Shown in pieces: positions 2,106-30,100 of a DNA stretch of 64,000 nt (positions are counted from its first letter, which is position 1; the number at the start of each line of letters is the position of its first letter). The position numbers were made by a program, and so were the translations under genes. The notes below the pieces were generated by a model. That model searched no databases. It was not told the DNA's origin and saw only the letters and a program-made list of their open reading frames with translations. Origin of the DNA: a virus; the IMG/VR virus record IMGVR_UViG_3300006749_000012, positions 1 to 64,000 of that record; one strand, 5' to 3'.

Positions 2106-2213
2106 ATGACGAGATGTAAACTCTTAGACAGTTGGCTTGATGTGAAATCGAAAGAACTAGACAAAGCAGAAAAGAAAGCAGGAAAGGATTTAATTACAGG
2201 CCGAAAAAAGTGA
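2106..2213 (+). CDS. Small basic protein, 35 aa (MTRCKLLDSWLDVKSKELDKAEKKAGKDLITGRKK); not in ORF track
   Basis: ATG..TGA fills the gap before the lyase gene; TATA-like box upstream. Confidence 0.55.
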   Translation: MTRCKLLDSWLDVKSKELDKAEKKAGKDLITGRKK

Positions 2214-2218
2214 CGGCC

Positions 2219-3055
2219 ATGCGAATCAATGTCTATGAGGTAGGGCCTAGAGATGGCCTTCAATACCTACCTCATACGGTATCTTCGCTTGACAAGCAGA
2301 GGCTTATCAATTCGCTTTACGACGCTGGAATAGAATCTATGGAGGAGGTGTCTTTTGCACATCCGAAAGTCCTACCACAGATGGCAGATGCAGAGCAGGT
2401 GTTTACAGGCAAAGGCGCTGCTTTAGTAATGAACAAGCGTGGGTTTGAGCGGGCTAACTCAGTTGGTGTTGAGAATTTCAACATCGTATTCAGCCCATGT
2501 GAAACTTTCAACATGCGTAACATGGGTAAAAGTCGCAGCGAGATAGTTCTAATGTATAAGACATTCATGGATAAAGTGCCAAAAGAAAATGTCAGAGCAT
2601 ATATCAGCATGGCTTTCGGGAGTCCCTACTCAGGTCAAGTGTCACCTTCGGTTATGAGGAGTTGTGTGCGTGATGCTGCTATGTTTGCAGATACCATCGT
2701 TTTTGCTGATACGGTAGGAGTGGGTTGCGGTAGTGACGTTCAACGATTGGCTAGGCTTGCATTCAAGGAAGGATTGAGGCCAGCCTTACATCTGCACCAT
2801 AATGGTGATGAAAGCCGAGCAGTGTCCTTAGTAAGGGCTGGCTTACTTTCAGGTATGAAAGAATTTGACTCAAGTATAGGTGGTCTAGGCGGCTGTCCCT
2901 TCGCAGAGGGGAGTGGCGCTAATCTTTCAACTGAAACATTAGTTCGTCATCTATACGCATGGGGTTTTGAAGTAGGTGTAGATTTGAAGAAATTGAAATT
3001 AGCATCCAGCATTGCTAACGATATTAAACATGAAGGAATTGTTTTAATATCTTAA
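2219..3055 (+). CDS. hmgL: Hydroxymethylglutaryl-CoA lyase (DRE-TIM metallolyase), auxiliary metabolic gene
   Basis: EVGPRDGLQ, FADTVG, ALHLH metal ligands, GGLGGCPFA with catalytic Cys, ANLSTE. Confidence 0.9.
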   Translation: MRINVYEVGPRDGLQYLPHTVSSLDKQRLINSLYDAGIESMEEVSFAHPKVLPQMADAEQVFTGKGAALVMNKRGFERANSVGVENFNIVFSPCETFNMRNMGKSRSEIVLMYKTFMDKVPKENVRAYISMAFGSPYSGQVSPSVMRSCVRDAAMFADTIVFADTVGVGCGSDVQRLARLAFKEGLRPALHLHHNGDESRAVSLVRAGLLSGMKEFDSSIGGLGGCPFAEGSGANLSTETLVRHLYAWGFEVGVDLKKLKLASSIANDIKHEGIVLIS

Positions 3056-5891: not shown

Positions 5892-6569
5892 ATGTCGGCT
5901 TGGTATGAACTTCTAAAGAAAAAAAAGGATGTAGATTTGACTTTACCACGAGGTAAAGAAATGGTCTTACAAGCCGAAGATAAAGACTACGAAAGAGGTT
6001 TGCTAGTGACACTGCTAAAGAACGGAGGTTATGATATGGCTTACTGGTATGATAAGCATGAACCTTATCCAATAGAAGTATTAGTTGACGGTAAGTCTAT
6101 TAAGAAAGATGCTAAGAAAGTTACAATGAAGTTCCATCCTGAACTGAAGAAATCGGTTTTAGTTACAGGTCGTCGCATCGTAAAAGCAGACATTGAACAA
6201 ATAATACTTGACGAAATAGAAAAAGAGGGTGGTGCTTTGGGTATGAAAAACCTAAGAAAGGTAGTTCCTGACGAGGAAAAATTGAAATCTACACTTGATG
6301 ATATGGTCAGAAGGGGAGTTATATTCATTCACGAAGATGGAGATATTTATACTCACAAACCTACGGATGAGATGGAAAAGGGGTGCGCTTGTGAACACTG
6401 CTTTGGTATAGACAGTGCTTTTGATTTCTTAGAAAAGAAACTTTGTCCAGCAGGTAAAGCCGCAGCCAAGCGCAAATTCAAAGTCTACCCTTCTGCTTAT
6501 GCTAACGGTTGGGCAGTTCAATACTGCCGAGGTAAGTTTAGAAAGAAGAAGAAGGGGAAAAAGAAATGA
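5892..6569 (+). CDS. Modular protein: AWYELLK tag, unknown domain, winged-helix-like segment, basic YPSAYANGW domain
   Basis: ATG 5892 after GAGGTGA; modules bounded by LKK|S, IVK|A, MEK|G, LEK|K. Confidence 0.65.
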   Translation: MSAWYELLKKKKDVDLTLPRGKEMVLQAEDKDYERGLLVTLLKNGGYDMAYWYDKHEPYPIEVLVDGKSIKKDAKKVTMKFHPELKKSVLVTGRRIVKADIEQIILDEIEKEGGALGMKNLRKVVPDEEKLKSTLDDMVRRGVIFIHEDGDIYTHKPTDEMEKGCACEHCFGIDSAFDFLEKKLCPAGKAAAKRKFKVYPSAYANGWAVQYCRGKFRKKKKGKKK

Positions 6570-7519
6570 GTCGCTGCACTTGCTACGATACTTTAGTCAT
6601 TAAGAACCTTAATCGATGGTTCAAAGAAAAGTGGGTAGATGTTAGTAGAAAAGACCCTAAGACAGGTAAGCATCCTCCTTGTGGTAGAAGTAAGGCTAAG
6701 AAAGGTCGTAAAGGCTATCCTAAATGTAGACCAAGTGTAAAAGTTAGTAGTAAAACTCCAAAGACTTCAGGTTCAATGAGCGAGGGTCAAAAACGTGCAG
6801 CCACTAAAAGAAAGCGCTCAAAGAGACAGGGTGTCGGTGGTAAGCCTACGATAGTCAAACGAGACATGTCTCATTGTAACTGTGGTGCGCCCAAAGGGTT
6901 TTCTTGCAAAGCGCATTGTAAAAGCAAACAAATGAAAAAAAGCGTGTTAATAAAAGCACCACGTATACCTCGCAAAAAGGGACAACCCGCTGGCTCAAAG
7001 AAACACTCTGATTTGTATACCGACGAGAATCCAAAAGGCACCATACATGGTCTAGGGTTCAAGAATCCAGCAAAGGCTCGCCAATCAGTATCCAAAATCA
7101 AAAACAGCAGCCGCAGCCACGCTCACAAAACACAAGCAGCGATTGCCATGGAGCAAAGGGCTGATGAAATGGGTAAGAAACAGGAGGCTGCTATTTATCG
7201 TAAATTCATCGAGCAGCAGAAAAAGAAAACCAAACAGATGAAAAAGTCAATATTAGTCAAAAGTCCCAAGTCACCTGAAGCAAAGCGTCACAAGTTAGAG
7301 TATGATAAAAAATACGAATCTACTCCTGAGCGTGTAAAATATCGTGAGGAGTTGAATCGTGAACGTAGAAAGCGTGGTATCTACGGCAGAGGAGGACCTG
7401 ATATGAGTCACACAAAAGACCACACACTAGTAGCAGAAAGCCCTCATGCGAACAGGGCTAGGCACTTCAAAGAACGGGGGACACTTAAATCAAATGACTT
7501 TTATGTCATGGTAAGGTGA
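6566..7519 (+). CDS. Highly basic multi-module protein (WFKEKWVD...PKCRP; HSDLYTDENPKGTI; degenerate HNH-like C-terminal module)
   Basis: Modules bounded by VIK|N, IVK|R, MKKSVLIK|A, MKKSILVK|S. Confidence 0.7.
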   Translation: MSRCTCYDTLVIKNLNRWFKEKWVDVSRKDPKTGKHPPCGRSKAKKGRKGYPKCRPSVKVSSKTPKTSGSMSEGQKRAATKRKRSKRQGVGGKPTIVKRDMSHCNCGAPKGFSCKAHCKSKQMKKSVLIKAPRIPRKKGQPAGSKKHSDLYTDENPKGTIHGLGFKNPAKARQSVSKIKNSSRSHAHKTQAAIAMEQRADEMGKKQEAAIYRKFIEQQKKKTKQMKKSILVKSPKSPEAKRHKLEYDKKYESTPERVKYREELNRERRKRGIYGRGGPDMSHTKDHTLVAESPHANRARHFKERGTLKSNDFYVMVR

Positions 7520-8888: not shown

Positions 8889-8924
8889 GTCAATTTGAAG
8901 TTGAGTTAGACCTTCGGCCTCACT

Positions 8925-8961
8925 GGGTCGGAGGCGAAATTCCCTCTCGCACCTCCGGCCC
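8925..8961 (+). terminator. GC-rich intergenic hairpin (terminator or regulatory structure)
   Basis: GGGTCGGAGGCGA pairs with TCG-CA-CCTCCGGCCC; AT-rich tract downstream. Confidence 0.55.
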
Positions 8962-9042
8962 GCCAAATTTAGTTATACTTAAATTAAGCAGGTAACTCTT
9001 TATTTAGGGTCGATTACTGCCTTCATCGAGAGGGATATTGAT

Positions 9043-9606
9043 ATGAGTAGTTTAGAAGCACCTCGTGAACATGACCAAGCAGAAATCCGTTTGATGGGTC
9101 TGATATTGACTCAAGCGGTGTCGATAGGTATAGCAATTGCTATATTTGATGCAGAACTTTGGATTGATTTAGACGACCCAACCGTTAATGGAGTGACCTA
9201 TGCAATGGCAGCGTTCGCTGTTCAAGGTCTAGCGTATTATCTTTTCAAAATGTTTTTCCAACAAGGTATGGACGAAAGAGCAAGGATGGCTGCACAAGAA
9301 CGGCAGAGAAGAAATCGATACAGAAGTATGGAATTTACTTTTGACCAACGTCGCCAAGACATGGAAATGAGGATGCAAGAAGCACAGTTAGAGGCTGAGT
9401 TGAACTGGATGCAAAAACACCCCGGTCAAACACCACCTTGGATAGAGGCTAGAATGTATAACGGAAGCACTTCTACCGCAGACTTCATACCTACTGACAT
9501 TAAGCCAAAAGAACCCCTTAGCCTTGGTTTGGACTTTTCGGAAGAAACCCCGTTGAAATTAGACGGGACTCCTGATAAGAGGTATCAAAAGAAAAAAAAG
9601 GAGTGA
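9043..9606 (+). CDS. Membrane protein, 2 TM helices + cytoplasmic coiled coil
   Basis: LMGLILTQAVSIGIAIAIF and VTYAMAAFAVQGLAYYLF, then R/E/Q-rich helix. Confidence 0.75.
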   Translation: MSSLEAPREHDQAEIRLMGLILTQAVSIGIAIAIFDAELWIDLDDPTVNGVTYAMAAFAVQGLAYYLFKMFFQQGMDERARMAAQERQRRNRYRSMEFTFDQRRQDMEMRMQEAQLEAELNWMQKHPGQTPPWIEARMYNGSTSTADFIPTDIKPKEPLSLGLDFSEETPLKLDGTPDKRYQKKKKE

Positions 9607-9612
9607 AGTCGA

Positions 9613-9861
9613 GTGGGTCGGATATTCAAAACACCTTCTGATGATGCAGTTGAAGAAACTCTGAGAAGTATGCATATCGCTAACACGGTAGATGTAGCAT
9701 ACGAAAGAGCAGTGGGCTGGATAAAAGTTGTAATATTTTCTTTAATCACAGCATTTGTCATTAGTGCTTTTGAATTTTATACAGATTGGAATCTTTGGGA
9801 AGTTTCAGGAAACTGGTTAAAAGACACTTTGTCTTCTTGGGCAGACTCTATCTTTGATTAG
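9613..9861 (+). CDS. Small membrane protein, 1 TM + Trp-rich amphipathic tail
   Basis: WIKVVIFSLITAFVISAF. Confidence 0.7.
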   Translation: MGRIFKTPSDDAVEETLRSMHIANTVDVAYERAVGWIKVVIFSLITAFVISAFEFYTDWNLWEVSGNWLKDTLSSWADSIFD

Positions 9862-9869
9862 GTGATATT

Positions 9870-10589
9870 ATGGGCGCAATGGCTGGCTCCGCATTAGTAG
9901 GAGGGATGGTGTTCGCTCGTGAACTTTGGCATTACTTCGTTCCTAGGAAAATTGGAATTTATGGACCTACAACAGTTGGAAAAACTACCTTAGATAGGTA
10001 TATGACAACGCCCGGCGAAATGGAAGATATACCGCTGAATCAACGAACTAAACATTTCAAAGTGCCGGGTATGAATCGGTTTATGTTACCAAGACCTAGT
10101 AGGAAAAGAGTTTCTTACAAAGGTGATACTAGAGTCGTTTATTCTGCCGATATAGGTGGAGAAGAAAGATTTTGGAATCTTTGGTTAGACGATATGGTCA
10201 ATCGACAAGTTGAGGCTGTGATATTTTTGTTTGACCACAAGTGTAACGAAGGCGGTGATGCTGCTATTCAAGCCGTAGGCGGATTCAAATATTTAGTAGA
10301 CTCGATAATTCATAGACAGTATCGCTATCGCAAATTCAGGTCTTGGTTCAAGGGTAAGAAGTATTGTCCAAAAGTCATCATGTTAGTTGCTAATAAAGCA
10401 GACCAGTGGTGGGATGAACAAGCGAATATATTGTGGCAGCAACAAAGATTGGGTGAACATAAAATGTTTGACCCATTCAGAGAAGATTTGATAAGGTTGC
10501 AGAAAGCAGGAGTGCCTACTAAAAGAGGTATGATGGCTACTAAAATTGGTTGGAATGTAGAGAATACAATGCTGGATTTATTAGTATAG
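9870..10589 (+). CDS. Small Ras-superfamily (Arf/Sar1-like) GTPase with N-terminal hydrophobic helix
   Basis: G1 GPTTVGKTT, G2 RT, G3 DIGG, AVIFLFD strand, G4 NKAD, G5-like ATK. Confidence 0.85.
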   Translation: MGAMAGSALVGGMVFARELWHYFVPRKIGIYGPTTVGKTTLDRYMTTPGEMEDIPLNQRTKHFKVPGMNRFMLPRPSRKRVSYKGDTRVVYSADIGGEERFWNLWLDDMVNRQVEAVIFLFDHKCNEGGDAAIQAVGGFKYLVDSIIHRQYRYRKFRSWFKGKKYCPKVIMLVANKADQWWDEQANILWQQQRLGEHKMFDPFREDLIRLQKAGVPTKRGMMATKIGWNVENTMLDLLV

Positions 10590-10595
10590 GTGATT

Positions 10596-11582
10596 ATGAT
10601 GAGATGGAGATATGGACAGGTGCCACAAAGTGATGTCAATTTGGCTAATATGAGTCAAGCGCACTTGATGGCTTTAGGGCAACAGGGTAATACTAATCAC
10701 GAACAGTTGTTAGAAATGCAATCGGCTCAGCAGGGTATGAAACAAGTAGCAGAGAAGAAAAACTTAGAAGTTCCTAAAGTTAATTTTTACCCCAGTAGAC
10801 ATCCTGACCCAAGAAAAGCAAGAAAGCAAGACATAAAGCAGGCTAGAAAGTTGTTGACTCCTACAAAGCGAGCATGGTATAATCCACTTAGGTGGGTTTG
10901 GGGTCGCAAATACAGATATAATCGACAGTCAAATCTTTGTGTTATAGACGGATGTAACTGTGAGGAGTTAATCAAGTATGACAACTTGTATGCTAAAATA
11001 TGTGATGAAGAAACAAGTGAAAGTTTGTGGGATTTGTATTGGAGGAACCCAGTGACAAAGACTCCCGAACCGTTTGTAGCAAGAGAGCAAGTCACTAATG
11101 GTAGAAAGATGAAGGGGACTTATTGCCCTGAACACTTACATCTCTATCATTTACTGTGTAAGTGGGAGGCAGAGGCTGATAAAGACCACAGTAAGACTAG
11201 AATGGGCATGAAAGAAATGGTAAAGAAAGGAGTAAGCACTATTGCTGTCCCTGTTTCGATTATTAGGAAAAAAGACAACACGCCTGAATTTCTGAAAAAG
11301 TATGAGCCTTTCTTTATTGAATTGGAAAAAGACTCAAAGTCTCAAAAGGGAATTAGTTTACTTCATTACAAAAACCCTGAAACTGGAATTAATGACGTAA
11401 CTATGATTGTGTTTGATTTGAGGCTTTTCCAAACAGAAATGCTTTCAGCGACACCTACTGTTGCAGATGCAATTGCTAACTTAGGTATATTACAACTACC
11501 TACTAATAGTCCAATCGATACCAATGAGGTTATCAATCAGAGTGGCTTGCCCCAAGTAGAGCAAGGTATGTTTTCACAGTGA
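10596..11582 (+). CDS. Hypothetical protein with Cys/His cluster (CVIDGCNC...YCPEH), GTPase operon
   Basis: ATG after AGGTGA; coupled to GTPase gene. Confidence 0.7.
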   Translation: MMRWRYGQVPQSDVNLANMSQAHLMALGQQGNTNHEQLLEMQSAQQGMKQVAEKKNLEVPKVNFYPSRHPDPRKARKQDIKQARKLLTPTKRAWYNPLRWVWGRKYRYNRQSNLCVIDGCNCEELIKYDNLYAKICDEETSESLWDLYWRNPVTKTPEPFVAREQVTNGRKMKGTYCPEHLHLYHLLCKWEAEADKDHSKTRMGMKEMVKKGVSTIAVPVSIIRKKDNTPEFLKKYEPFFIELEKDSKSQKGISLLHYKNPETGINDVTMIVFDLRLFQTEMLSATPTVADAIANLGILQLPTNSPIDTNEVINQSGLPQVEQGMFSQ

Positions 11583-11592
11583 GGGATTTGAA

Positions 11593-12216
11593 ATGTTCAA
11601 CAATAATAACACCAATGGAGCGTTAAACTTAGGAGCGACTTCTCCTCAGCCAGCACAGACTAATCCATTTGCCAATCAAAATGGCATGATGCAACAAGCA
11701 AGTCAGAATCCATTCATGACAGGTATGATGGGAGGAGCAGGTATGCAGTCCAATATGATGGGGCAGCAACCGATTGCACCACCATCAGAAATGGATATTC
11801 ATTTGGCTTTGATGAAAACACTAGCACCTATTGACAGATTTATTGCAGGTGGGCAAATGGGTGTTTTACTTCAAATGCTGAATGACTTAGTTTCTTTTTC
11901 AGTTATTGAAATATTGAAAAATGCAACCTTTGTAATCAATGAAGATGACGGCACTATGAAAATGGACATTACATCTCTACCAAGTAATCTCCAAACTATG
12001 AGTGCAGAAAACGTCACAGGTCAATTTAACAGTTTACAAATGACAAGTCAAAGTAATATACAAAATGCAGAAATGCAACAGCAGCAAATCGCTGCGTTCG
12101 CTCAACAATCTATGATGGGTGGAGCATTGAATGCCGCACTACAAGATGATGGTTTCATGAATAAAGCAGGTAATGCTGCCGGAAGTTTCATGGGTAAATT
12201 TATGGGGATGAGATGA
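11593..12216 (+). CDS. Q/N/M/G-rich low-complexity protein, GTPase operon
   Basis: 207-aa ORF after GAGGGA; NPF motifs; amphipathic C-terminus. Confidence 0.7.
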   Translation: MFNNNNTNGALNLGATSPQPAQTNPFANQNGMMQQASQNPFMTGMMGGAGMQSNMMGQQPIAPPSEMDIHLALMKTLAPIDRFIAGGQMGVLLQMLNDLVSFSVIEILKNATFVINEDDGTMKMDITSLPSNLQTMSAENVTGQFNSLQMTSQSNIQNAEMQQQQIAAFAQQSMMGGALNAALQDDGFMNKAGNAAGSFMGKFMGMR

Positions 12217-12458
12217 TGGTAAAAAGTGAGCCTTTCTTAGGTTTTTCAACGACAGCGATGGAGATATTTGCACCAGTAAAAAGTGTTATTGTAGATATGG
12301 TGATGGTCCAATTATTGGCTATCATAGTAACTCTAGGCTTAGTGCTGATTACAGGCGGTGACAACTTAAATAGCGAAACAATGGCTTACTTAGTCGCTGG
12401 TTTGTTCGGCGCTTTCTTTATGCTTGGTGGCATTTATTCCCGAATATCCGACATTTAG
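12213..12458 (+). CDS. Small 2-TM membrane protein (holin-like size/topology)
   Basis: VMVQLLAIIVTLGLVLIT and MAYLVAGLFGAFFMLGGIY; ATGA overlap. Confidence 0.7.
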   Translation: MMVKSEPFLGFSTTAMEIFAPVKSVIVDMVMVQLLAIIVTLGLVLITGGDNLNSETMAYLVAGLFGAFFMLGGIYSRISDI

Positions 12459-12719
12459 GTGAGTTCCCCATTTACCAAGAGGGCATTGACTAGATGTCAG
12501 TGAAGTCTTAACTCGCATCTGACAGCCGCATTCGGTGCATCGGTTACTTCTGTGTTCCCAACTAGGACATACCATACACATGTCCATTCTTAATCGTTTG
12601 ACATCATCGGGCACAAACCTTCTCATCACTATGTCTCTACCTGCTTTAGCCAAGTCTTTCGCAGTATTTACTGATACTGGAACGCCCATTATTTTAGGCT
12701 GTATTCTTGGCAGTTTCAT
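12390..12719 (-). CDS. Cys-rich protein (CMVC...CTECGC...CPLGKW; DUF6171-like), the only convincing minus-strand gene
   Basis: Cys pattern typical of a small phage family; occupies a gap with no plus-strand gene. Confidence 0.7.
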   Translation of the reverse strand: MKLPRIQPKIMGVPVSVNTAKDLAKAGRDIVMRRFVPDDVKRLRMDMCMVCPSWEHRSNRCTECGCQMRVKTSLTSSQCPLGKWGTHLNVGYSGINATKHKESAEQTSD

Positions 12720-12780
12720 GTTCACTCGGTTAAGGTAATCATTCAAAAGGGTTATTGGCATCAATCTCCTCGGATTCGTT

Positions 12781-13482
12781 ATGGCGGAAGGTCGTCAGAC
12801 AAAGCGTTCTTGTCCTTTTTGTCAACATGGCGATAGAGATGCGCTGGAACAAGACATAGTTGATGGTATTTGCAATCCTCAAATCCTAGACAAAGATATG
12901 GGTTGGAGAGCGAATACTGCTGAGCGACACATGAAGAACCATGCAGGTGATTATCATGCAGGTGCAAATCATTCTTGCGTAGTCTGCACCAGTGATGACA
13001 GGCGTGCTTTGGAAGTTGCTTACTTTGAAGGAGAGCGCACGAGTGAGAGTATTGCTGATGAACTAGATTGTAGCGAAGAATTAGTATATAGACACATGAA
13101 GCACCACTTCCAACCACTTGTAAAGAAAAGTTCTGCTGCTATTGTAGCAATAAAGGTTGGAGAAGAAGTTGACATTCTTAGAGGCAATGTCCAAAACTTA
13201 AATGGAAAACTTGCTCAGTTCATGGCAGAGTCTAATGTTCATGACGATGGGGTTATTTCGGATATGGTTAGGCTACACAAAGAAGTTAGAGAGACTCTGA
13301 AAGACCTCACCAATTACAGAGAGAAGTGGGCAGAGCCGACTACTAATGTCGCTAATAATACTATTAACGTCCTGAAACTTGAATTAGGTAAAGAGAGTCC
13401 CGATGTTTGGAAGCGAGTCAAGGCTAGCCTCCTCTCTCAGGCAGACGGTAAGGTAGACGAGGATATTCTTGATATTTTGTGA
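12781..13482 (+). CDS. Tandem zinc-finger/HTH DNA-binding protein; candidate terminase small subunit
   Basis: Two CxxC...RHMKxH repeats followed by coiled coil; first gene of the operon leading to TerL. Confidence 0.55.
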   Translation: MAEGRQTKRSCPFCQHGDRDALEQDIVDGICNPQILDKDMGWRANTAERHMKNHAGDYHAGANHSCVVCTSDDRRALEVAYFEGERTSESIADELDCSEELVYRHMKHHFQPLVKKSSAAIVAIKVGEEVDILRGNVQNLNGKLAQFMAESNVHDDGVISDMVRLHKEVRETLKDLTNYREKWAEPTTNVANNTINVLKLELGKESPDVWKRVKASLLSQADGKVDEDILDIL

Positions 13483-13492
13483 GGTTTAAATT

Positions 13493-14860
13493 ATGCCAAG
13501 AACACCCACCGGCTCTGATACTCGGATGTATAGTCCGAGAAGCGAGTCAAACTTAGGTTATTCTAAGGATGATGACGCTTATGCCTATGGGCAAGGTGAC
13601 CCTGAACAACGAGAGTTGATGCGTGATAAGAAGCAGTCTGAAAAAGAGCAACAGACTTACATAGCGGATTTGCCTCATTTGCAAATATCTATACCTAAAA
13701 CAGCACCTTCAACACCTCCGATGATGCCGGAAGAAGAAGAAGAAGAACCTATGATGGATAATCAATTCAATGAAGGTCAGCAGTTTGGTGCTATGACAGG
13801 CATGCCCGATACAGGTAACTTGAGTATCGGTAACGCAACAGGGACAATGCCAGCACCGGGCGGTATGCTTGCTACCGGAGAGCCGATGAATGACGCTTGG
13901 TCTACTTTGATGAAAGAAGATGAAGATGTCGAAGAAGATGAAGATGATGAAATACCTGATAGAAGGTTTAACAAAAAGCCTCCTATCGATATGAATGCAG
14001 AAATCAACAGACTTAGGAGACTGGCTGCCGAACCTGTAATAGAAATGAGAGAAAATGAGCAAAGAGAGGAAATGATTAGACCCACTGCTCACGGCAATCC
14101 TGACTATTTTAGACAAAGCGAGCCGATGGATAATGCTTGGTCTACTCTTATGAAAGCCCGACTTGACAAAGTTAAGGGTGCTAAAGACAAATCATGGAAG
14201 CAGACTCAATTTGAGATTCAACCGGGCGGCTCGGACATCACTACTGCTAACACTCGCAGAGCAAAATTGCAATCAAGATTCTTACAACCCCACAAAAAAC
14301 GAGGCGTCGACCTAGCACCGTTAAGTGTTCATCGAACTCACTTAGGTATAGAGACTAAGCAACCTCAGAGGCTGTTCCCTCGTGATTATGGTCATCAGAT
14401 GGCTACACAGGCTCGTAGAAAATTGATGGGCAACGTGCCTCAGATACCAGCAGGTCACGGTCTTGGACCTGAACAGGCTTACAACCCGAAGTCACCTAAG
14501 CAATCTTCTTCTAAGGGACTATCGCTAACTGAGCCAAGAACTATTCGTGAAAGGGGTAAATCATTCGCTAAGTCCGTCAAAGAAGATTTGGAAGAAATAT
14601 CAAAAAGAGCAGACTATATGCAATTTACTCAAATGCGAAGACTACTTCGCAGACTAAAAGAACTAGCAGAAAAGAACGAGCGCAGACTCAAATCGAAGGA
14701 ACAAAGCGGTCACGGTAACAATCGTGAAGCCGGACACCGTGAGGCTCAAAATAGCACTACTAAACCTGAAGGTGCTACTGAGAACCTTGAAGATGACCCA
14801 AAAAATTGGGGCGCTCCTTCTACTCTTTTCGCTGCTAGAGGTAGCGGGAGGGTAGGCTGA
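13493..14860 (+). CDS. Acidic/basic modular protein with two EPMxxAWSTLMK tags; putative head-internal protein
   Basis: Repeats at 13880-13915 and 14120-14155. Confidence 0.7.
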   Translation: MPRTPTGSDTRMYSPRSESNLGYSKDDDAYAYGQGDPEQRELMRDKKQSEKEQQTYIADLPHLQISIPKTAPSTPPMMPEEEEEEPMMDNQFNEGQQFGAMTGMPDTGNLSIGNATGTMPAPGGMLATGEPMNDAWSTLMKEDEDVEEDEDDEIPDRRFNKKPPIDMNAEINRLRRLAAEPVIEMRENEQREEMIRPTAHGNPDYFRQSEPMDNAWSTLMKARLDKVKGAKDKSWKQTQFEIQPGGSDITTANTRRAKLQSRFLQPHKKRGVDLAPLSVHRTHLGIETKQPQRLFPRDYGHQMATQARRKLMGNVPQIPAGHGLGPEQAYNPKSPKQSSSKGLSLTEPRTIRERGKSFAKSVKEDLEEISKRADYMQFTQMRRLLRRLKELAEKNERRLKSKEQSGHGNNREAGHREAQNSTTKPEGATENLEDDPKNWGAPSTLFAARGSGRVG

Positions 14861-24119: not shown

Positions 24120-24135
24120 ACGGCTGGTGGTGTTA

Positions 24136-27100
24136 ATGCGAGAAGGTCCACTTGATACCTTAGATAGGCATCGCTTAACCTTCGTAGATTCACTATTCGA
24201 CGGTATAGGGAAAGCAGATGCCGGTGCTGATTTTTATTTGTCTGCAATAAGTGCAGAAAGAAAGGGGTATAAATTAAGCGTAGATGATGAAACTCTTATC
24301 AAAATGTTTGGCAGTATAATTGCTAAACAGGACGAGCAAGAAGTTACTGGTTCGCAAGTATACGACTTAGGTAACGAGGTAGAAGATTCAACTCTTAGAG
24401 AAACTGGAGTTTCACAGTTTGATGTGGCTACTGATTTAGGTAGTAGAGGAGATGCTTTGTCAGATAATCCTTCTTACAAAACAGACCGAGTTATGCATGC
24501 TGAGCCGGGAAGTGCTGGTAATTTAGCAGGTCATAAGTGGAATATGGAAGACGGAGATTTGGTTGAAGACCCGCATGCTACAAGTAATTACATTGGAGAT
24601 GTGCAAGAAAGGTTTGTTGACCATTTAGGTGACTTTTTTCTTGCTGATAATCCGATAGATGAATCGCAGTCTCAAATAGACCATCACAAAGAATCCTCTT
24701 GGGAGGACTGGACTAACAGTAATGAGCATGACTTTTTACTAAATGAACATCATTTCGGTAGGTTAGGGACAGTGGGTAACGATTACCTTACCAATCACAG
24801 TCTTTATCAACATCATTACAATCAATGGGAAAGAGATAACGCAGACAGGATTGATGAGAGAAAACAAATACTATCTCAGCAAGGTATGGACGATAATGAA
24901 ATCGAACACGAGATGCAAAAAATTCACATGGACCAAGTAAAAAGAGATTGGCAAGAAAATTTAGGATTCTTAGATTTCATGCTTGGATTAGAATGGCTTA
25001 CTCCTGAAGAAAGAAAGTCCTTTTATGACCATGTTGAGGAATACGGTGCATCTGATATTACTCAACCTTTCAAATTAAACAGGCACAATATGGCGGGAAA
25101 TCCTGATTTCATACCGAGAGCGAAAAGAAACTTTGCTCAAAGGTTTTCAGGACTCTACGACTCTTGGACTAGGGGCGCAGCCTACCCCGGACAGGGTTTG
25201 AGAAAAGAACCAATTGGATTGCCCGATGATGTTCGGGTAGTAGAAAGAGCGCACAATACTCTTGCGTTAGATGAACATAGAAGTCCCGGTAAGACTGGCT
25301 CTGCTATGGAAAGGGCCATTGCCTACATGAATGAAATGATGAGAGATTATTACTTTGACCAAATGCCTAACCAAACGCCTCCTCAATATAGTGCTAGCGA
25401 TATACCTACATTTACAGAATTAGAAGATGGAAGTTTCGATGTCGATACAGTTCCTAGATTTAAAGCAGATAAAAAAAGCAAATTCGGTGGTAGATACAGT
25501 CATGTTTCTTATGATGCGTTAAAACTCATGCTTGGTATAGATGAAAATAATCAAATCTTTGAAGATAACTCTCATCCGGTATGGGGCTCATACTGGAAAA
25601 AGGATAACGCCCCTTTCTCTCAAGAAGAAGTGGACAAGATAATGGATAGTAGGGGCAAGGCTGCTAAGCAACTAGCGGCCTCCGGTAGAATGAGTAAAAA
25701 CCATGGCTACATGCATTATGGTCATCACATAAATGGTGACAAATACGATTACTCAGATGATGATAATACGCTTGCTACTTATTGGCACAGTATGTATACT
25801 GGAGGAGGATTAGGTAAAATGCCTAATGATTTGTTTGATTTGATACATCATCATAGCGTATTGTTTGAGCCGGACTACGCTTCTGACGAAGGGGCACAGA
25901 CTGAAGAAAAAACTGCTAGGCAACTGCAAGCAGAATTAGATGATGAGAAGGACTTTTTATCCGCTGCACAAATAGATGAGAGAGAGGAGCAGATACGAAG
26001 TAAAATTCGTGAAGAAATGTTGAGGGAGGAATACGGGGAAGAAGAAACTTCGACTGATGACATTCCTCTGAAAAGAAGAATGGATGGGGCACAAGAGCAT
26101 AGTCTATTTTTCTCAAGAACTGGTAATAGCATAATGCCTAGGGTTAGATTAGATAGTCAGTTAGAAAGAGTGGACTCAGGGTTATCTTCTCTATTAGGTC
26201 CTTTTGGTCAACCTGAACTAGGTTTGTTCAATATGATTGCTGGGCAAGGTAAAATGGACCAAGTTAGTTTTAGAGGTGACATTCAAGATTCTTTGAAAAA
26301 TATGGGACCTTCTAATGTTAATTTTAGCAGAAGTCAGAAGGGTTCATCAGGTGAAAATCTCGATATGGCTAGACACAGCGGAACGGTTGACAGCGCTCAT
26401 AAAAACAAAGTATTTGGTGAATACAACAGTGCTACCCAGTCAGGTAATTACGATGAGGAGGCTAGACAAGCAGCCCATGCTGAGATGATTGGTCGAGATT
26501 CAATAGGGTTGAGTATCCATAATCCCTTCGTTAGCGGTGCGGGTAGATTCGATGAAATGGGTCAGCGGAACAGAAATGCTCACCATCACAAACTTACATC
26601 TTATCTTTTGGGATTTGCTAGACCGCCTATGTCTCCTTTGAAACAACCGCTAACTAGAGAAATGAGTAGGCGACCTGAGCACCTTGAACATCACCCCTTA
26701 GCGAACCCTGAAGATATGGAAAGTATCAAGAGAAGGCAACTAACTTCTTCTAAATTTGATATTGAGCAGGAATTATCTAATTTAAAAGAAGAATACGAAA
26801 CTAATTTGAGTCGCACAGATGACGAAGATAAACGTCAAGAACTCAAAGAAGAATATGAGAGAAGAAAAAATAGACTAGAATCCGATGGTCAATTCGTATC
26901 AGAAGACGCTGTGAGAGAAGGAATTGTGCAACAACCACCCGGATTACTTTACAGTAGATTGAGTGCGAGTGAACCTATTACAGAAGAAGAAGAACGATTT
27001 ATCACTTTGTCAGATTTATCTGCTACTTTACAAAGTAGGTTATTTGAATTACAAGACCCTGAAGGCTTTGCTAGAGACAGCCAAAGTAGGGGTATCAAGC

Positions 27101-30100
27101 AAGTCGCTGACGAGTTAGGTCAAACTAGTTCTTTGCAACGACAAACTAGTGAGGAACGTGAAAAAGACTTCACAGAATTAGGCAGCATGCTCGGCTTAGA
27201 TATGAGTGACCCTGACGCAGTTCAAAATAAATTGAAAGAACTAACTGGACAACTAAGTGAATTGGAGCCAGCGCTGAATAGACTTGGTGGAGGTTTAGGT
27301 ATGGTGGGTATGAGAAGACTACCAAAACACCAAGATGCCTATGTGAGTCGCTTTAGAGACAAATTACATGCTGACACTTTAGCGATAAGAGATGCAGCGA
27401 TTCATTTGGTTGAAAATGAAATAGACCCCAATATATTATCTGAGATTCTTAACCCTAACTTACCAATTGAAACAGTAGCAGCCAACGTCAGAATGTTGGC
27501 TAGAATGGCTAACGAATATTTACACAAAGCACCTCATCAAGACCATGGTATACACACTTTAGGGCACGGTGAGCACAATGAAGAAGGAGATTCTGCACAA
27601 CAAGCACTGGGTCAAATCAGAACAGATTTGAATAACCACGATAACAGTTTGACTCCCAGTGATAATTTAAGTTTAATACAGGCTAGTCAAAGTGACTCTC
27701 CACAAGAAAAACAAGCCTTGCTAAGTCAACTTGCTGATAAATTAGGTATAGACAAAGATGACCCAAGGCAAATTGATACTTTGGCTAGGTTAGCAGATGA
27801 ACACATGCTCGATGCCATAAAGCAAAATGGCACTGGTTATTCTCCACCTATAATGACCATAAGGCAATACTATCAACAACAGTATCCTGATTTCAATATA
27901 GAAGAAGCCCTGACTTCTCTTGGTAGATTTCGCAGTCGTGAAAAGGGGTTAGAATTGTTTAACAATTTGAAAAGACTAGAATCGAGTCTTAGCCAATCTC
28001 CTGAAAAATACGGAGTTAAATTGCACACTGCAAACAACTCGGACGATAGAGAAATTGGACCTGAAAAGACTTTGAGGAGGAAGGGTAAGATTGGAGACAA
28101 CGAATACACTGTAAAACCAACCAAAGCAGGCGGAAAGTCATCTGTAAAAAATGAAAGTCAGGTATTCAGAGCCAAACAGATGTTAGATTCTATTTTGGTA
28201 GGTATGCCTGAAGTAGAAGAAATCGATACTAGTGTAACTAGAAGGGGTATGGGCAGAGTCCCTGTTGATAGATTCGGGCCTAATTCTCATTCCGTCCATA
28301 GTCTATATGATTCGGCAGGGTTTAGGCACGAGCAAGGTGATTTATTCCGTCCTAATTTCAATTTCAAAATAAACCCTAGGGGTAAAGTCAAGTTAGAATT
28401 AGTTGACCCTATGAACAATCCTCAAAAACTGTTGCAACCCTTAGAGTCTTTTTGGGAGGCAGCATTATCAGATAAATCAAAACTCTTTCCTCCCGAATGG
28501 TTAGAAATGTTAAGAAACCCTGAACACGCTATCGCAAGGGAAAGCCTCAACAATCCTTTCAGATTTGCTGCTCAAAGAAAACCAAATAGTATAGATGCTA
28601 CTAGGAACCAAGATGCTCACTCCACTACTAAGTCTGAAATAGGGTTAGCAGACTTAACTAATCCTGACATAATCCGTAAAGAACTTGGTAGTAAGGTTCC
28701 CTTGTTACAACCAATGCATCGCATTTTTAACATAAGTGATTTAGAGCATCTTCGTGGATTTACAGGCGACTGGATAGTTTCTCACATGCCTGAAGGCGAA
28801 AGAGGATTTGTAGAAAAGAAAGACGACGAAGTTTCATCCAAGAGTTTTGATTTATCTGATGATGATAAAGATAATTTCAAAGAGGTAACCGACGAAGATT
28901 TCAACGCTGATGTAATTAAATTAGAAGACGGATACTACATATTTGATGTCATTGAGTTTGCTGGTAAAGAAGTGCACGATGTTCCATTAGATGACCGTAT
29001 CAAAATACTTAGAGGTGGTATGGAAGGAGTAGAGAACGTCCATCTCCCAAGCGCTAGTGACACGAGATTGTCAGACGATATAGGTTTGAAATCTGTGGTT
29101 AAAGATTTGCAAAAAGAGCATGAGAATATATTGCTTAGAGATGCAAAGTCAGTTTATATGGCTGGCGAAATGCGTCACCCAAAGTGGGTCATGTTGAAGC
29201 CGGGTAGAGATGTGGTTCTCAGGGTATTGGAAAAAAGGGGAAGCGGACCCTACACTTACAGATTAGGAACAGGACCTATTACACAAGATGACAAGATAGG
29301 GGATAGAGCAGTTCAATCCGATGGTGAAACTTACATGGACTTAGGCGCAGCCTTCAATAGTCCTGACAAGTATAACGTCGGTGACCACGTTAGAGTGAAC
29401 GTCGCTAATGTGAGTAAAGTAGAATCTGCTGAAGATGATACGATATATACATTGACAGGTTCAGAAATAGAAGGAGAAGCAGAAGGCGAGGGCTTAGTTA
29501 GTCAAGAGACACTTGGTATGCTAGCCAAGTCAGATAACATTCAATGGTTGTGCGAAGTTCATAGAGCCAAAAGTGGAATCAGAGTGGTAATGCCACAAGG
29601 CGATGTAGTTTACAAAGCCACTGAATCTTTGGGAGCATGGACTGTCCATAGTCCATTAGCATCGAATAACTATCTCATTCGACTGTCTGAAAGTCAGAGA
29701 GTATACTGGAGTCCTATTGCTGGTGCTTTACTGAAAGCAGATTTAGAAGTAAAAGAAGAAGTTCATGAAAGCAAAGGAGATGGCAAGCCCCTCATACCTC
29801 CTAAGAAAATACAAGATGCACAGTGGTGGAGAAAGAAAAAAAAGCAAAAGATTCTAGTCAAAGGATTAACCTTGATTGATAAATTTATGAAAAGTGGAGT
29901 AGGTGCAGTTGGTCAATCGAGCACTGGCGCTATGGGGTTAGGTATAGGATACGCTACTCCGATAGAATCTCCTATGGGTCCAACTAATTTGCATGATGAA
30001 AAAACTATGCCTGATTATGATAATCGCAAACGACCGGGTGAGGATTCTCCCATAGAGCCTGATACAGAGGAAAAAGACGAAGATAAACGCATGACTGTGC

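Follow-up and report, generated by a model that had tools for sequence, protein, structure and literature searches.

A six-gene cassette around a small GTPase

We analyzed positions 1 to 64,000, here called the window, of the IMG/VR virus record IMGVR_UViG_3300006749_000012, the full length of which is 79,956 bp and which is estimated to be 77% complete. At positions 9043 to 12458 the window carries a cassette of six open reading frames (ORFs), ORF1 to ORF6, the third of which encodes a small GTPase. The initial annotation of this DNA had described these ORFs as tightly coupled genes, and all six do lie on the plus strand in close succession (Table 1), with intergenic gaps of 6, 8, 0, 10, and −4 nucleotides (nt).

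Shine-Dalgarno (SD)-like sequences (GGAG, GAGG, or GGTGA) lie a few bases upstream of ORF2, ORF3, ORF5, and ORF6 each. ORF4 starts at or just past the ORF3 stop codon; translation probably begins at an ATG at 10596 or 10599, and the Atlas copy of the protein begins at residue 3. The internal SD-like sites, the overlaps of starts and stops, and the single control region upstream fit one transcript, and, as read from the sequence, the anatomy of the cassette is that of one operon. For each of the six genes, the ratio of nonsynonymous to synonymous substitution rates (dN/dS) was 0.04 to 0.19 in pairwise comparisons with eight relatives, with dS being saturated, which points to strong purifying selection on all six. 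Because dN/dS was low, we regard the ORFs of 81 and 82 codons as real genes.

ORF1 is preceded by a spacer of 154 nt. Here we found a GC-rich hairpin at about 8924 to 8962 (arms GGGTCGGAG and CTCCGACCC), with a folding energy of −26.9 kcal/mol and a z score of only −1.8. On its 3′ side lies an AT-rich, TATA-like box, TTTAGTTATACTTAAA, at 8968 to 8983, and an SD-like sequence, GAGAGGGA, sits immediately 5′ of the ORF1 ATG. Compared by eye, the hairpin arms and the box recur upstream of ORF1 in close relatives, with the hairpin followed by TTTAGT[TG]ATACTTAAA; more distant relatives have a different inverted repeat at the same place. The TATA-like box has no second copy elsewhere in the window. 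The element at 8924 to 8983 may be a terminator followed by an archaeal promoter, or it may be a regulatory RNA element.

Table 1. Genes of the cassette and other features of the window discussed in the text (aa, amino acids; HTH, helix-turn-helix)
Feature	Position	Strand	Product	Remarks
Upstream control region	8924..9042	+		Hairpin, TATA-like box, and SD-like site; read from the sequence
ORF1	9043-9606	+	187 aa	
ORF2	9613-9861	+	82 aa	
ORF3	9870-10589	+	239 aa	
ORF4	10590-11582	+	330 aa	
ORF5	11593-12216	+	207 aa	
ORF6	12213-12458	+	81 aa	Start overlaps the ORF5 stop (ATGA)
HTH protein gene	12781-13482		233 aa	Directly 3′ of the cassette; N-terminal CxxC/His cluster and HTH
Cys-rich ORF	12390-12764	−	124 aa	
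Tag-bearing protein gene	13493-14860		455 aa	
Head-block protein gene	24127-30156		2009 aa	
Basic protein gene	6566-7519		317 aa	
HMGL-like gene	2210-3055			

The cassette is conserved as a unit in four clades

Synteny across relatives had been proposed in the initial annotation as a check on the operon. We carried out this comparison and found the cassette in four clades. The DNA sequencing runs in which the cassette occurs are all from marine or aquatic metagenomes. Clade 1 comprises 80 IMG/VR loci with GTPase identities of 60 to 89%. ORF1 to ORF6, the 233-aa HTH protein gene, and the gene that follows it were present in the same order in 79 to 80 of these 80 loci, with ORF1 and ORF2 found in 79 loci each and ORF5 in all 80. 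The synteny, together with the dN/dS values of 0.04 to 0.19, shows that the block is conserved far beyond chance.

The core was also kept in clades 2 to 4, at GTPase identities of 30 to 40%. In clade 2 (loci L082 to L085), genes for a protein with two transmembrane (TM) segments and a helix, a protein with one TM segment, the GTPase, and homologs of ORF4 and ORF5 lie directly 3′ of a thermosome gene, and the genes 3′ of the core differ from those of clade 1. Homologs were detected in clade 2 for ORF1 (E value, 1e-9), ORF2 (1e-7), ORF4 (2e-24), and ORF5 (1e-5, linking it to clade 1). Clade 3 (13 loci) has all six genes as well as the one for the 233-aa protein; an ORF4 homolog is present, the ORF1 counterpart has the same architecture, and the ORF2 counterpart keeps an AYER..GW motif and the TM segment. 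In clade 4 (140 stretches), the gene for the major head protein (phrog_24667; E value, 1e-25) is found 1.2 kb upstream of the block. The clade 4 homologs of ORF4 and ORF5 were recognized by hhalign with probabilities of 94% and 92%, and both upstream membrane proteins share the architecture of ORF1 and ORF2 without detectable sequence similarity. The invariant core thus consists of three soluble proteins, always preceded by a protein with two TM segments and a charged helix and by a protein with one TM segment. The block moves between neighborhoods as a module, mostly within or beside structural genes.

A tblastn search of isolated phage and archaeal-virus genomes returned no homolog of the GTPase, and two divergent members of the GTPase family, P0129 and P0162, were not found in IMG/VR. 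Our search of prokaryote genomes gave three matches only, all on contigs of 8 to 16 kb from metagenome-assembled genomes (L086, L087, and L088, binned as Maricaulis, Promethearchaeati, and Parvibaculum). Because all three contigs carry the whole cassette and downstream viral genes, they are almost certainly misbinned viral DNA, and we dropped them as a guide to a cellular origin or to the host.

ORF3 is a divergent small GTPase closest to the Arf family

We aligned 59 members of the ORF3 family from all four clades. The G1 motif of ORF3 is GPTTVGKT (residues 32 to 39), in which G32, G37, and K38 are invariant among the 59 members. G3 is DIGG (94 to 97), with D94 and G97 present in 59 of 59, and G4 is NKAD (175 to 178), with N175 and K176 in 59 of 59 and D178 in 58 of 59. 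G5 reads MATK (222 to 225) in the window and SA[KR] in most other members. T60, kept in 57 of 59, is probably the switch I threonine of G2. A tryptophan eleven residues past the G3 aspartate, W105, is kept in 58 of 59; a tryptophan at this position is characteristic of Arf, Sar1, and G-alpha. Immediately past DxxG, Arf has its catalytic glutamine and Sar1 a histidine. At this position (98), the 59 members have histidine (34), glutamine (11), glutamate (12), aspartate (1), or alanine (1). The window protein has Glu98, so the catalytic-residue part of the DxGG[QH] signature is absent from it.

Every member has a hydrophobic or aromatic segment of 22 to 28 residues before strand β1, with a hydrophobic moment of 0.22 to 0.58. 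In the AlphaFold model of ORF3, residues 2 to 23 are predicted to form a helix directly before β1. By hydropathy, the N-terminal segment has neither the length nor the hydrophobicity of a TM segment, as would be expected of an in-plane anchor.

Homologs of ORF3 were plentiful in metagenomes, with 474 close ones and 140 more from a second clade; the contigs reach about 138 kb in length. The family is narrow all the same: of 1.84 billion representative proteins, only 75 matched at an E value of <1e-3. All of them were at least 29% identical to ORF3 and look like members or fragments of its own family; no canonical distant small GTPase appeared at that threshold. No Pfam or NCBIfam model scored over its cutoff with the family. 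Against the Pfam Arf model (PF00025), ORF3 gave an E value of 0.45 and 10.4 bits, below the cutoff of 22.3. Weak Pfam matches among 30 members were to Arf (14 of 30), Roc (13 of 30), and MMR_HSR1 (7 of 30), and the best Arf score of the 30 had an E value of 0.0048, which is not comparable to passing the curated cutoff.

We then compared the family profile with the sequences in the PDB. The first match was GerdArfR1 (8oun; E value, 7.7e-6), which has been identified as an Asgard Arf-related GTPase (bioRxiv 10.1101/2024.02.28.582541). The alignment spans the N-terminal helix, the P-loop, and also switch II. Next in the ranking came Arl8A/B (about 1e-4), followed by Rab33B, Arl5, SR-beta, and KRas.

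An AlphaFold model built from the 59-sequence, four-clade alignment had a predicted local distance difference test score (pLDDT) of 87.6 and a predicted template modeling score of 0.83; an earlier model from a shallow alignment (pLDDT, 51) was discarded. The predicted fold is a Ras-like G domain in which about 25 residues are inserted between α1 and β2 and extra helices follow β4, and this single model resembles GTP-bound forms. Foldseek alone showed no preference for the Arf family. When its best 1000 matches were reranked, the top eleven all belonged to that family: Arl8b (17.6), Arl1 (17.3), Arl8 (17.1), membrane-tubule Arf1 (17.1), Arl6 (17.0), GTP-bound GerdArfR1 (16.8), Arf1 from the AP-3 complex (16.6), GTP-bound HodArfR1 (16.1), yeast Arf1 (15.8), and two entries for Arl2 (15.6). 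Rab5 and Rab8 ranked below these entries, at about 15.2. In a wider structure search, the top five were Arf6, Arf6, Sar1, SR-beta, and Arl2. The margin over Rab is about 2 Z.

Given the intact G1, G3, G4, and G5 motifs and the Ras-like fold, ORF3 is a genuine small GTPase. It is very divergent, and by profile and predicted fold it is nearest to Arf, Arl, and Sar1. Because it lies below the Pfam Arf threshold, we call it Arf/Sar1-like rather than a member of the curated Arf family. These results bear out what the initial annotation had seen in the letters of the gene: a GTPase with motifs G1 to G5 (of which G2 is probable, at T60), a hydrophobic or amphipathic N-terminal helix (here predicted at the place it has in Arf), and a likeness to Arf and Sar1 (nearest by profile, to GerdArfR1 and Arl8, and by predicted fold).

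Set beside Arf1, Arf6, Arl1, Arl6, Arl8, Sar1, and the Asgard proteins GerdArfR1 and HodArfR1, ORF3 shares the G domain with its G1, G3, G4, and G5 motifs, the helix directly before β1, and the tryptophan 11 residues past the aspartate; most viral members also share DxGG followed by glutamine or histidine. It differs from them in several respects. Identity is only 16 to 20%, no member reaches the Pfam Arf threshold, about 25 residues are added between α1 and β2 along with the helices past β4, and ORF3 itself has glutamate at the catalytic Gln/His position. Moreover, its gene belongs to a virus whose archaeal host is not of the Asgard group, and its partners are unrelated to any known guanine nucleotide exchange factor (GEF), GTPase-activating protein (GAP), or coat protein.

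Membrane proteins ORF1, ORF2, and ORF6

The topology proposed in the initial annotation held for ORF2, with one TM segment (residues 33 to 51), and for ORF6, with two (29 to 47 and 56 to 74, by hydropathy). For ORF1, it had counted two TM segments, but only one is strong (TM1, residues 17 to 35; Kyte-Doolittle value, 2.2); the second is a weaker, conserved hydrophobic helix at about 51 to 72. This is followed by a charged, coiled-coil-like helix, RRxDMELRMQEAQLExEL, and then a basic C-terminal tail. ORF2 begins with a conserved hydrophilic N terminus, MGRIFKTPxDDxVEETLRxMH, and ends in an acidic tail. ORF6 is shared by clades 1 and 3; its position in clades 2 and 4 is taken by unrelated genes, several of which, in clade 2, encode small membrane proteins.

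ORF1, ORF2, and ORF6 are holin-like in size and topology only. We considered ORF1 as a SLATT pore former and rejected the assignment: the E values of 0.018 (Pfam), 0.0013 (NCBIfam), and 0.023 (PADLOC) all fell far short of the respective cutoffs, and SLATT_4 was dropped after matching only 1 of 19 orthologs.

Soluble partners ORF4 and ORF5

ORF4, the second-best conserved protein of the cassette, has a Q-rich N terminus. Conservation extends to a basic stretch (PDPRKARKxDIKQA.KLL.PTKR) and to the C-terminal domain. It had been noted as a Cys/His protein, and we counted 6 cysteines and 8 histidines in it, with four conserved positions at C117, C122, and C179-x2-H182. In clade 4 the set reads CxxC...CxxH. 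C117/C122 and C179-x2-H182 are probably zinc ligands. We found 636 metagenome homologs of ORF4, a second homolog search yielded close relatives only, and profile searches revealed no relative in Pfam, PHROGs, NCBIfam, PADLOC, or the PDB.

ORF5 has a Q/N/M/G-rich N terminus with NPF motifs at residues 24 and 39. No reader of NPF motifs is known from archaea. The initial annotation had characterized the protein as a Q/N/M-rich low-complexity protein with NPF motifs, which is right for its arms and for the motifs, but ORF5 also has a conserved helical core of ordinary complexity at about residues 62 to 150, followed by a Q-rich helix and a Gly/Met-rich C-terminal tail. Its conserved motifs are APPSE and SLPSNLQTMSAEN. 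The ESM Atlas returned nothing for either ORF4 or ORF5.

In clade 2, the ORF4 homolog of L085 (8714 to 9490) is without the His ligands (CPQALQLF, compared with CPEHLHLYH), and the ORF5 homolog of L082 (9487 to 10305) has gained a C-terminal Cys cluster (CQYC...CQMC). The loss of histidines in the one and the gain of cysteines in the other suggest that metal sites of the partners are evolutionarily mobile.

The genome is that of a magrovirus

The window is a single strand-biased block of a tailed virus. The record encodes a large terminase, a portal, a prohead protease, a major capsid protein, and a tail tube protein. Its family B DNA polymerase has its best matches, at 24 to 25% identity, in haloarchaeal tailed viruses. 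The 2009-aa head-block protein contains a weak match to an ATP-dependent DNA ligase domain (PF01068; E value, 1e-4; residues 1597 to 1691), and a ligase gene inside the structural module is a published oddity of magroviruses (PMC5434244). Magroviruses are tailed viruses assigned to Marine Group II archaea, and the hallmarks seen here are those described for them (PMC5434244). Clade 2 relatives carry, as mentioned, a thermosome gene. By its gene content, which combines morphogenesis genes, an archaeal-type replisome, and a ligase in the structural block, the genome is that of a magrovirus (order Magrovirales), a virus of archaea that abound in the ocean. The polymerase matches and the magrovirus hallmarks (PMC5434244) thus agree with the earlier description of this DNA as coming from an archaeal tailed virus.

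Genes surrounding the cassette

The 233-aa protein encoded directly 3′ of the cassette is present in all 80 clade 1 loci and in clade 3. It has weak matches to sigma-70 region 4 and HTH_20 and to a PHROG small terminase (E value, 0.048), which makes it a candidate for a small terminase or a regulator of late genes. The 455-aa protein, encoded two genes past the cassette, contains two near-identical motifs, EPMNDAWSTLMK and EPMDNAWSTLMK, which are the best copies of a genome-wide tag. The initial annotation had stated that none of the six cassette proteins carries this cargo tag. We also found it in none of ORF1 to ORF6 with a regular expression, which recovered only the two best copies.

The 124-aa, Cys-rich ORF on the minus strand (CxxC...CxxC type) runs toward ORF6, the last 69 nt of which it overlaps. 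No other sizeable ORF on the minus strand fills a gap between plus-strand genes in this region. It gave tblastn matches in 56 of the 80 related loci (31 to 76% identity) and in L088, and it had no family match. The product may be a small zinc-ribbon regulator closing the operon.

The 317-aa protein is very basic, with 86 Lys and Arg residues and 8 cysteines, and it matches DUF5872 (E value, 1.7e-9), phrog_6437, and phrog_23735. Parts of it are 80 to 92% identical across otherwise divergent relatives, above the values for the cassette genes. The HMGL-like gene (HMG-CoA lyase family; PF00682; E value, 1.5e-18) looks like an auxiliary metabolic gene. Early descriptions of magroviruses reportedly included no auxiliary metabolic genes.

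Comparison with known GTPase and lysis systems

By its logic, the closest known system is that of ArvA, a small GTPase of archaea that has an amphipathic helix at its N terminus and drives vesicle formation (PMC10927574). The ArvABC system (OapABC; PMC10927574) has in common with the viral operon a small GTPase with such a helix, small operon partners, one of which in each system has a zinc-type Cys pattern, and a home in Euryarchaeota; ArvABC is also linked to membrane deformation. The viral operon differs in that two or three of its products are membrane proteins, a component missing from ArvABC. ArvA is annotated under PF01926, a family that matched 7 of 30 members of the ORF3 family weakly and so gave no specific similarity at this level. 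Models for OapB (PF09846) and OapC (PF09845) had no match at an E value of ≤1 across the 79,956-bp record, and both were found in Haloferax volcanii controls. With OapB and OapC absent from the viral record, we rejected membership in the ArvABC system. The link to ArvA drawn in the initial annotation stands as an analogy, that of a helix-bearing GTPase in an operon, but does not extend to the partners ArvB and ArvC, which are missing.

Small GTPases are also known from giant viruses, such as the mimivirus Rab protein (PDB 5xc5). Those derive from host Rab, Ran, or Ras genes that were captured recently, and they are highly similar to cellular proteins, whereas the magrovirus family is without a close cellular relative and belongs to a virus of prokaryotes. 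All 50 matches listed from the BFVD viral structure library, several small GTPases among them, belong to giant viruses of eukaryotes.

The holin lysis cassettes of tailed phages resemble the viral cassette in their small proteins with one or two TM segments, charged tails, tight operon structure, and location in or beside late or terminase genes. In contrast to these, our library scans found no match to an endolysin, spanin, or holin family in the viral cassette, which instead includes a GTPase and two large soluble proteins that occur in no known lysis cassette, and its host has no murein.

A GTP-switched membrane machine as the favored interpretation

We searched for lysis genes and found no lysis enzyme by Pfam in the window ORFs scanned and none by PHROGs in 19 of those ORFs. 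ORF1 to ORF6 and their immediate neighbors gave no hydrolase or peptidase by Pfam, PHROGs, or NCBIfam. To this extent, our results agree with the earlier remark that no canonical lysis gene is visible. The host is an archaeon without a murein wall.

The reading we favor, tentatively, is that the cassette encodes a virus-made, GTP-switched machine acting at the cytoplasmic membrane of the host, probably late in infection, with membrane bending, rupture, and virion release as its most likely output. We infer membrane binding, partner contacts, late timing, and the role in egress from the architecture of the proteins and the position of the genes. A GTP-switched membrane machine is suggested because Arf-like switches with N-terminal helices work through nucleotide-gated insertion into membranes, because two or three membrane proteins are translationally coupled to ORF3, and because the block is autonomous, strongly conserved, and usually travels with late-type genes. 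We put egress forward as the single most likely output because the scanned ORFs hold no other lysis candidate, because magroviruses are considered lytic (PMC11706807), and because the egress machinery of tailed archaeal viruses has been described as completely uncharacterized (PMC10791045).

In such a machine, ORF3 would serve as a switch of the Arf/Sar1 type, with the GTP form freeing the N-terminal helix for insertion into the membrane. There it would meet the cotranslated ORF1, with its two TM segments and coiled-coil-like helix, and ORF2, with its single TM segment. It would then recruit the soluble proteins ORF4, which probably binds zinc, and ORF5, with its helical core and Q-rich arms. 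ORF6, with two TM segments, would be a lineage-specific accessory. The result would be local bending and then loss of membrane integrity, timed by the nucleotide switch, through which virions would leave the murein-less host.

Several points weigh against this proposal. No known family of holins, lysins, coat proteins, GAPs, or GEFs is matched by any of the five GTPase partners, and small TM proteins with charged tails are generic. Because Glu98 replaces the glutamine of Arf and the histidine of Sar1 at the catalytic position, hydrolysis by ORF3, and with it the GTPase cycle, may be unusual. The place of the cassette inside a morphogenesis block fits assembly as well as egress. Philosof et al. 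put the thermosome gene in the replicative cluster, and the clade 2 cassette lies 3′ of that gene, so late expression is not assured. Finally, the host is uncultivated, and its assignment rests on the literature and on the archaeal-type replication genes.

A more specific version of the proposal is that the cassette is the long-sought lysis system of tailed archaeal viruses. In an S-layer-bounded cell, the GTPase would time the rupture of the membrane by its partners and trigger it through membrane insertion. We consider this version unlikely as it stands. The rival explanations that follow together outweigh any one reading.

The rival that survives best, though we rate it as rather unlikely, is membrane remodeling without lysis, that is, vesicle budding or the building of a membrane platform or compartment for replication or assembly, in the manner of ArvA or of coat recruitment by Arf and Sar1. 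The Arf-like fold of ORF3 and its N-terminal helix suit such a role as well, ArvA is a precedent for it in Euryarchaeota (PMC10927574), an assembly could be scaffolded by the low-complexity, Q-rich arms found in ORF4 and ORF5, and in clade 2 the cassette adjoins the thermosome gene. Yet the cassette is without homologs of ArvB and ArvC, we recognized no coat-like protein, tailed viruses acquire no envelope, and magroviruses have been described as lytic (PMC11706807).

The genomic position of the cassette also raises the possibility, to our mind a poor one, of an accessory role in morphogenesis, in which the GTPase would be a checkpoint or an assembly chaperone for head, packaging, or tail and the membrane proteins would merely anchor the site. 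Clades 1 and 3 have the cassette directly upstream of the gene for the 233-aa HTH protein, with the large terminase gene a few genes on, and in clade 4 it is flanked by the gene for the major head protein and by other large genes of no assigned function. But the block shifts between neighborhoods as an independent unit, and a small GTPase of the Ras type figures in no known assembly pathway of tailed viruses. Two or three membrane proteins would, moreover, be hard to fit to a cytoplasmic assembly line, and the regular expression found the tag motif of the neighboring putative virion proteins in none of the six.

Equally improbable is a function in host takeover or exclusion, be it a change of the envelope against superinfection, interference with GTPase-controlled division, vesiculation, or secretion of the host, or, as a variant, SR-beta-like targeting of viral membrane proteins: small membrane proteins are typical of exclusion systems and a variable catalytic residue could suit a noncycling mimic, but genes for exclusion tend to be variable, while this block ranks with the best conserved of its region (GTPase identity, 60 to 89%), the PADLOC library gave no significant match, no partner resembling SR-alpha or SRX is present, and archaea are not known to use SR-beta.

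Implications for magroviruses and for Arf-like GTPases

In the searchable literature, we found no mention of a GTPase from a magrovirus or from a virus of Poseidoniales. The cassette appears to combine an Arf-like membrane switch with partners that are entirely new, and its carrier is new as well. Magroviruses rank with the most abundant viruses in the surface ocean (PMC5434244). The egress of tailed archaeal viruses is an acknowledged blank (PMC10791045), and the cassette offers a conserved, clonable set of five or six genes with which to address it. ORF3 is a small protein with clear switch residues as targets for mutation, and assays of it do not require the host to be cultured.

If the cassette does prove to be a lysis system, it would be a GTP-gated functional analog of the holin clock and the first membrane machine built on a small GTPase to be known from a prokaryotic virus, with no cellular source lineage in sight. 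As far as we found among the matches listed from BFVD, ORF3 would be the first such GTPase for a virus of prokaryotes. It would extend Arf-like GTPases beyond eukaryotes and Asgard archaea to a distinct and deeply divergent Arf/Sar1-like lineage in viruses of Marine Group II, which bears on the debates over the origin and spread of membrane-trafficking GTPases.

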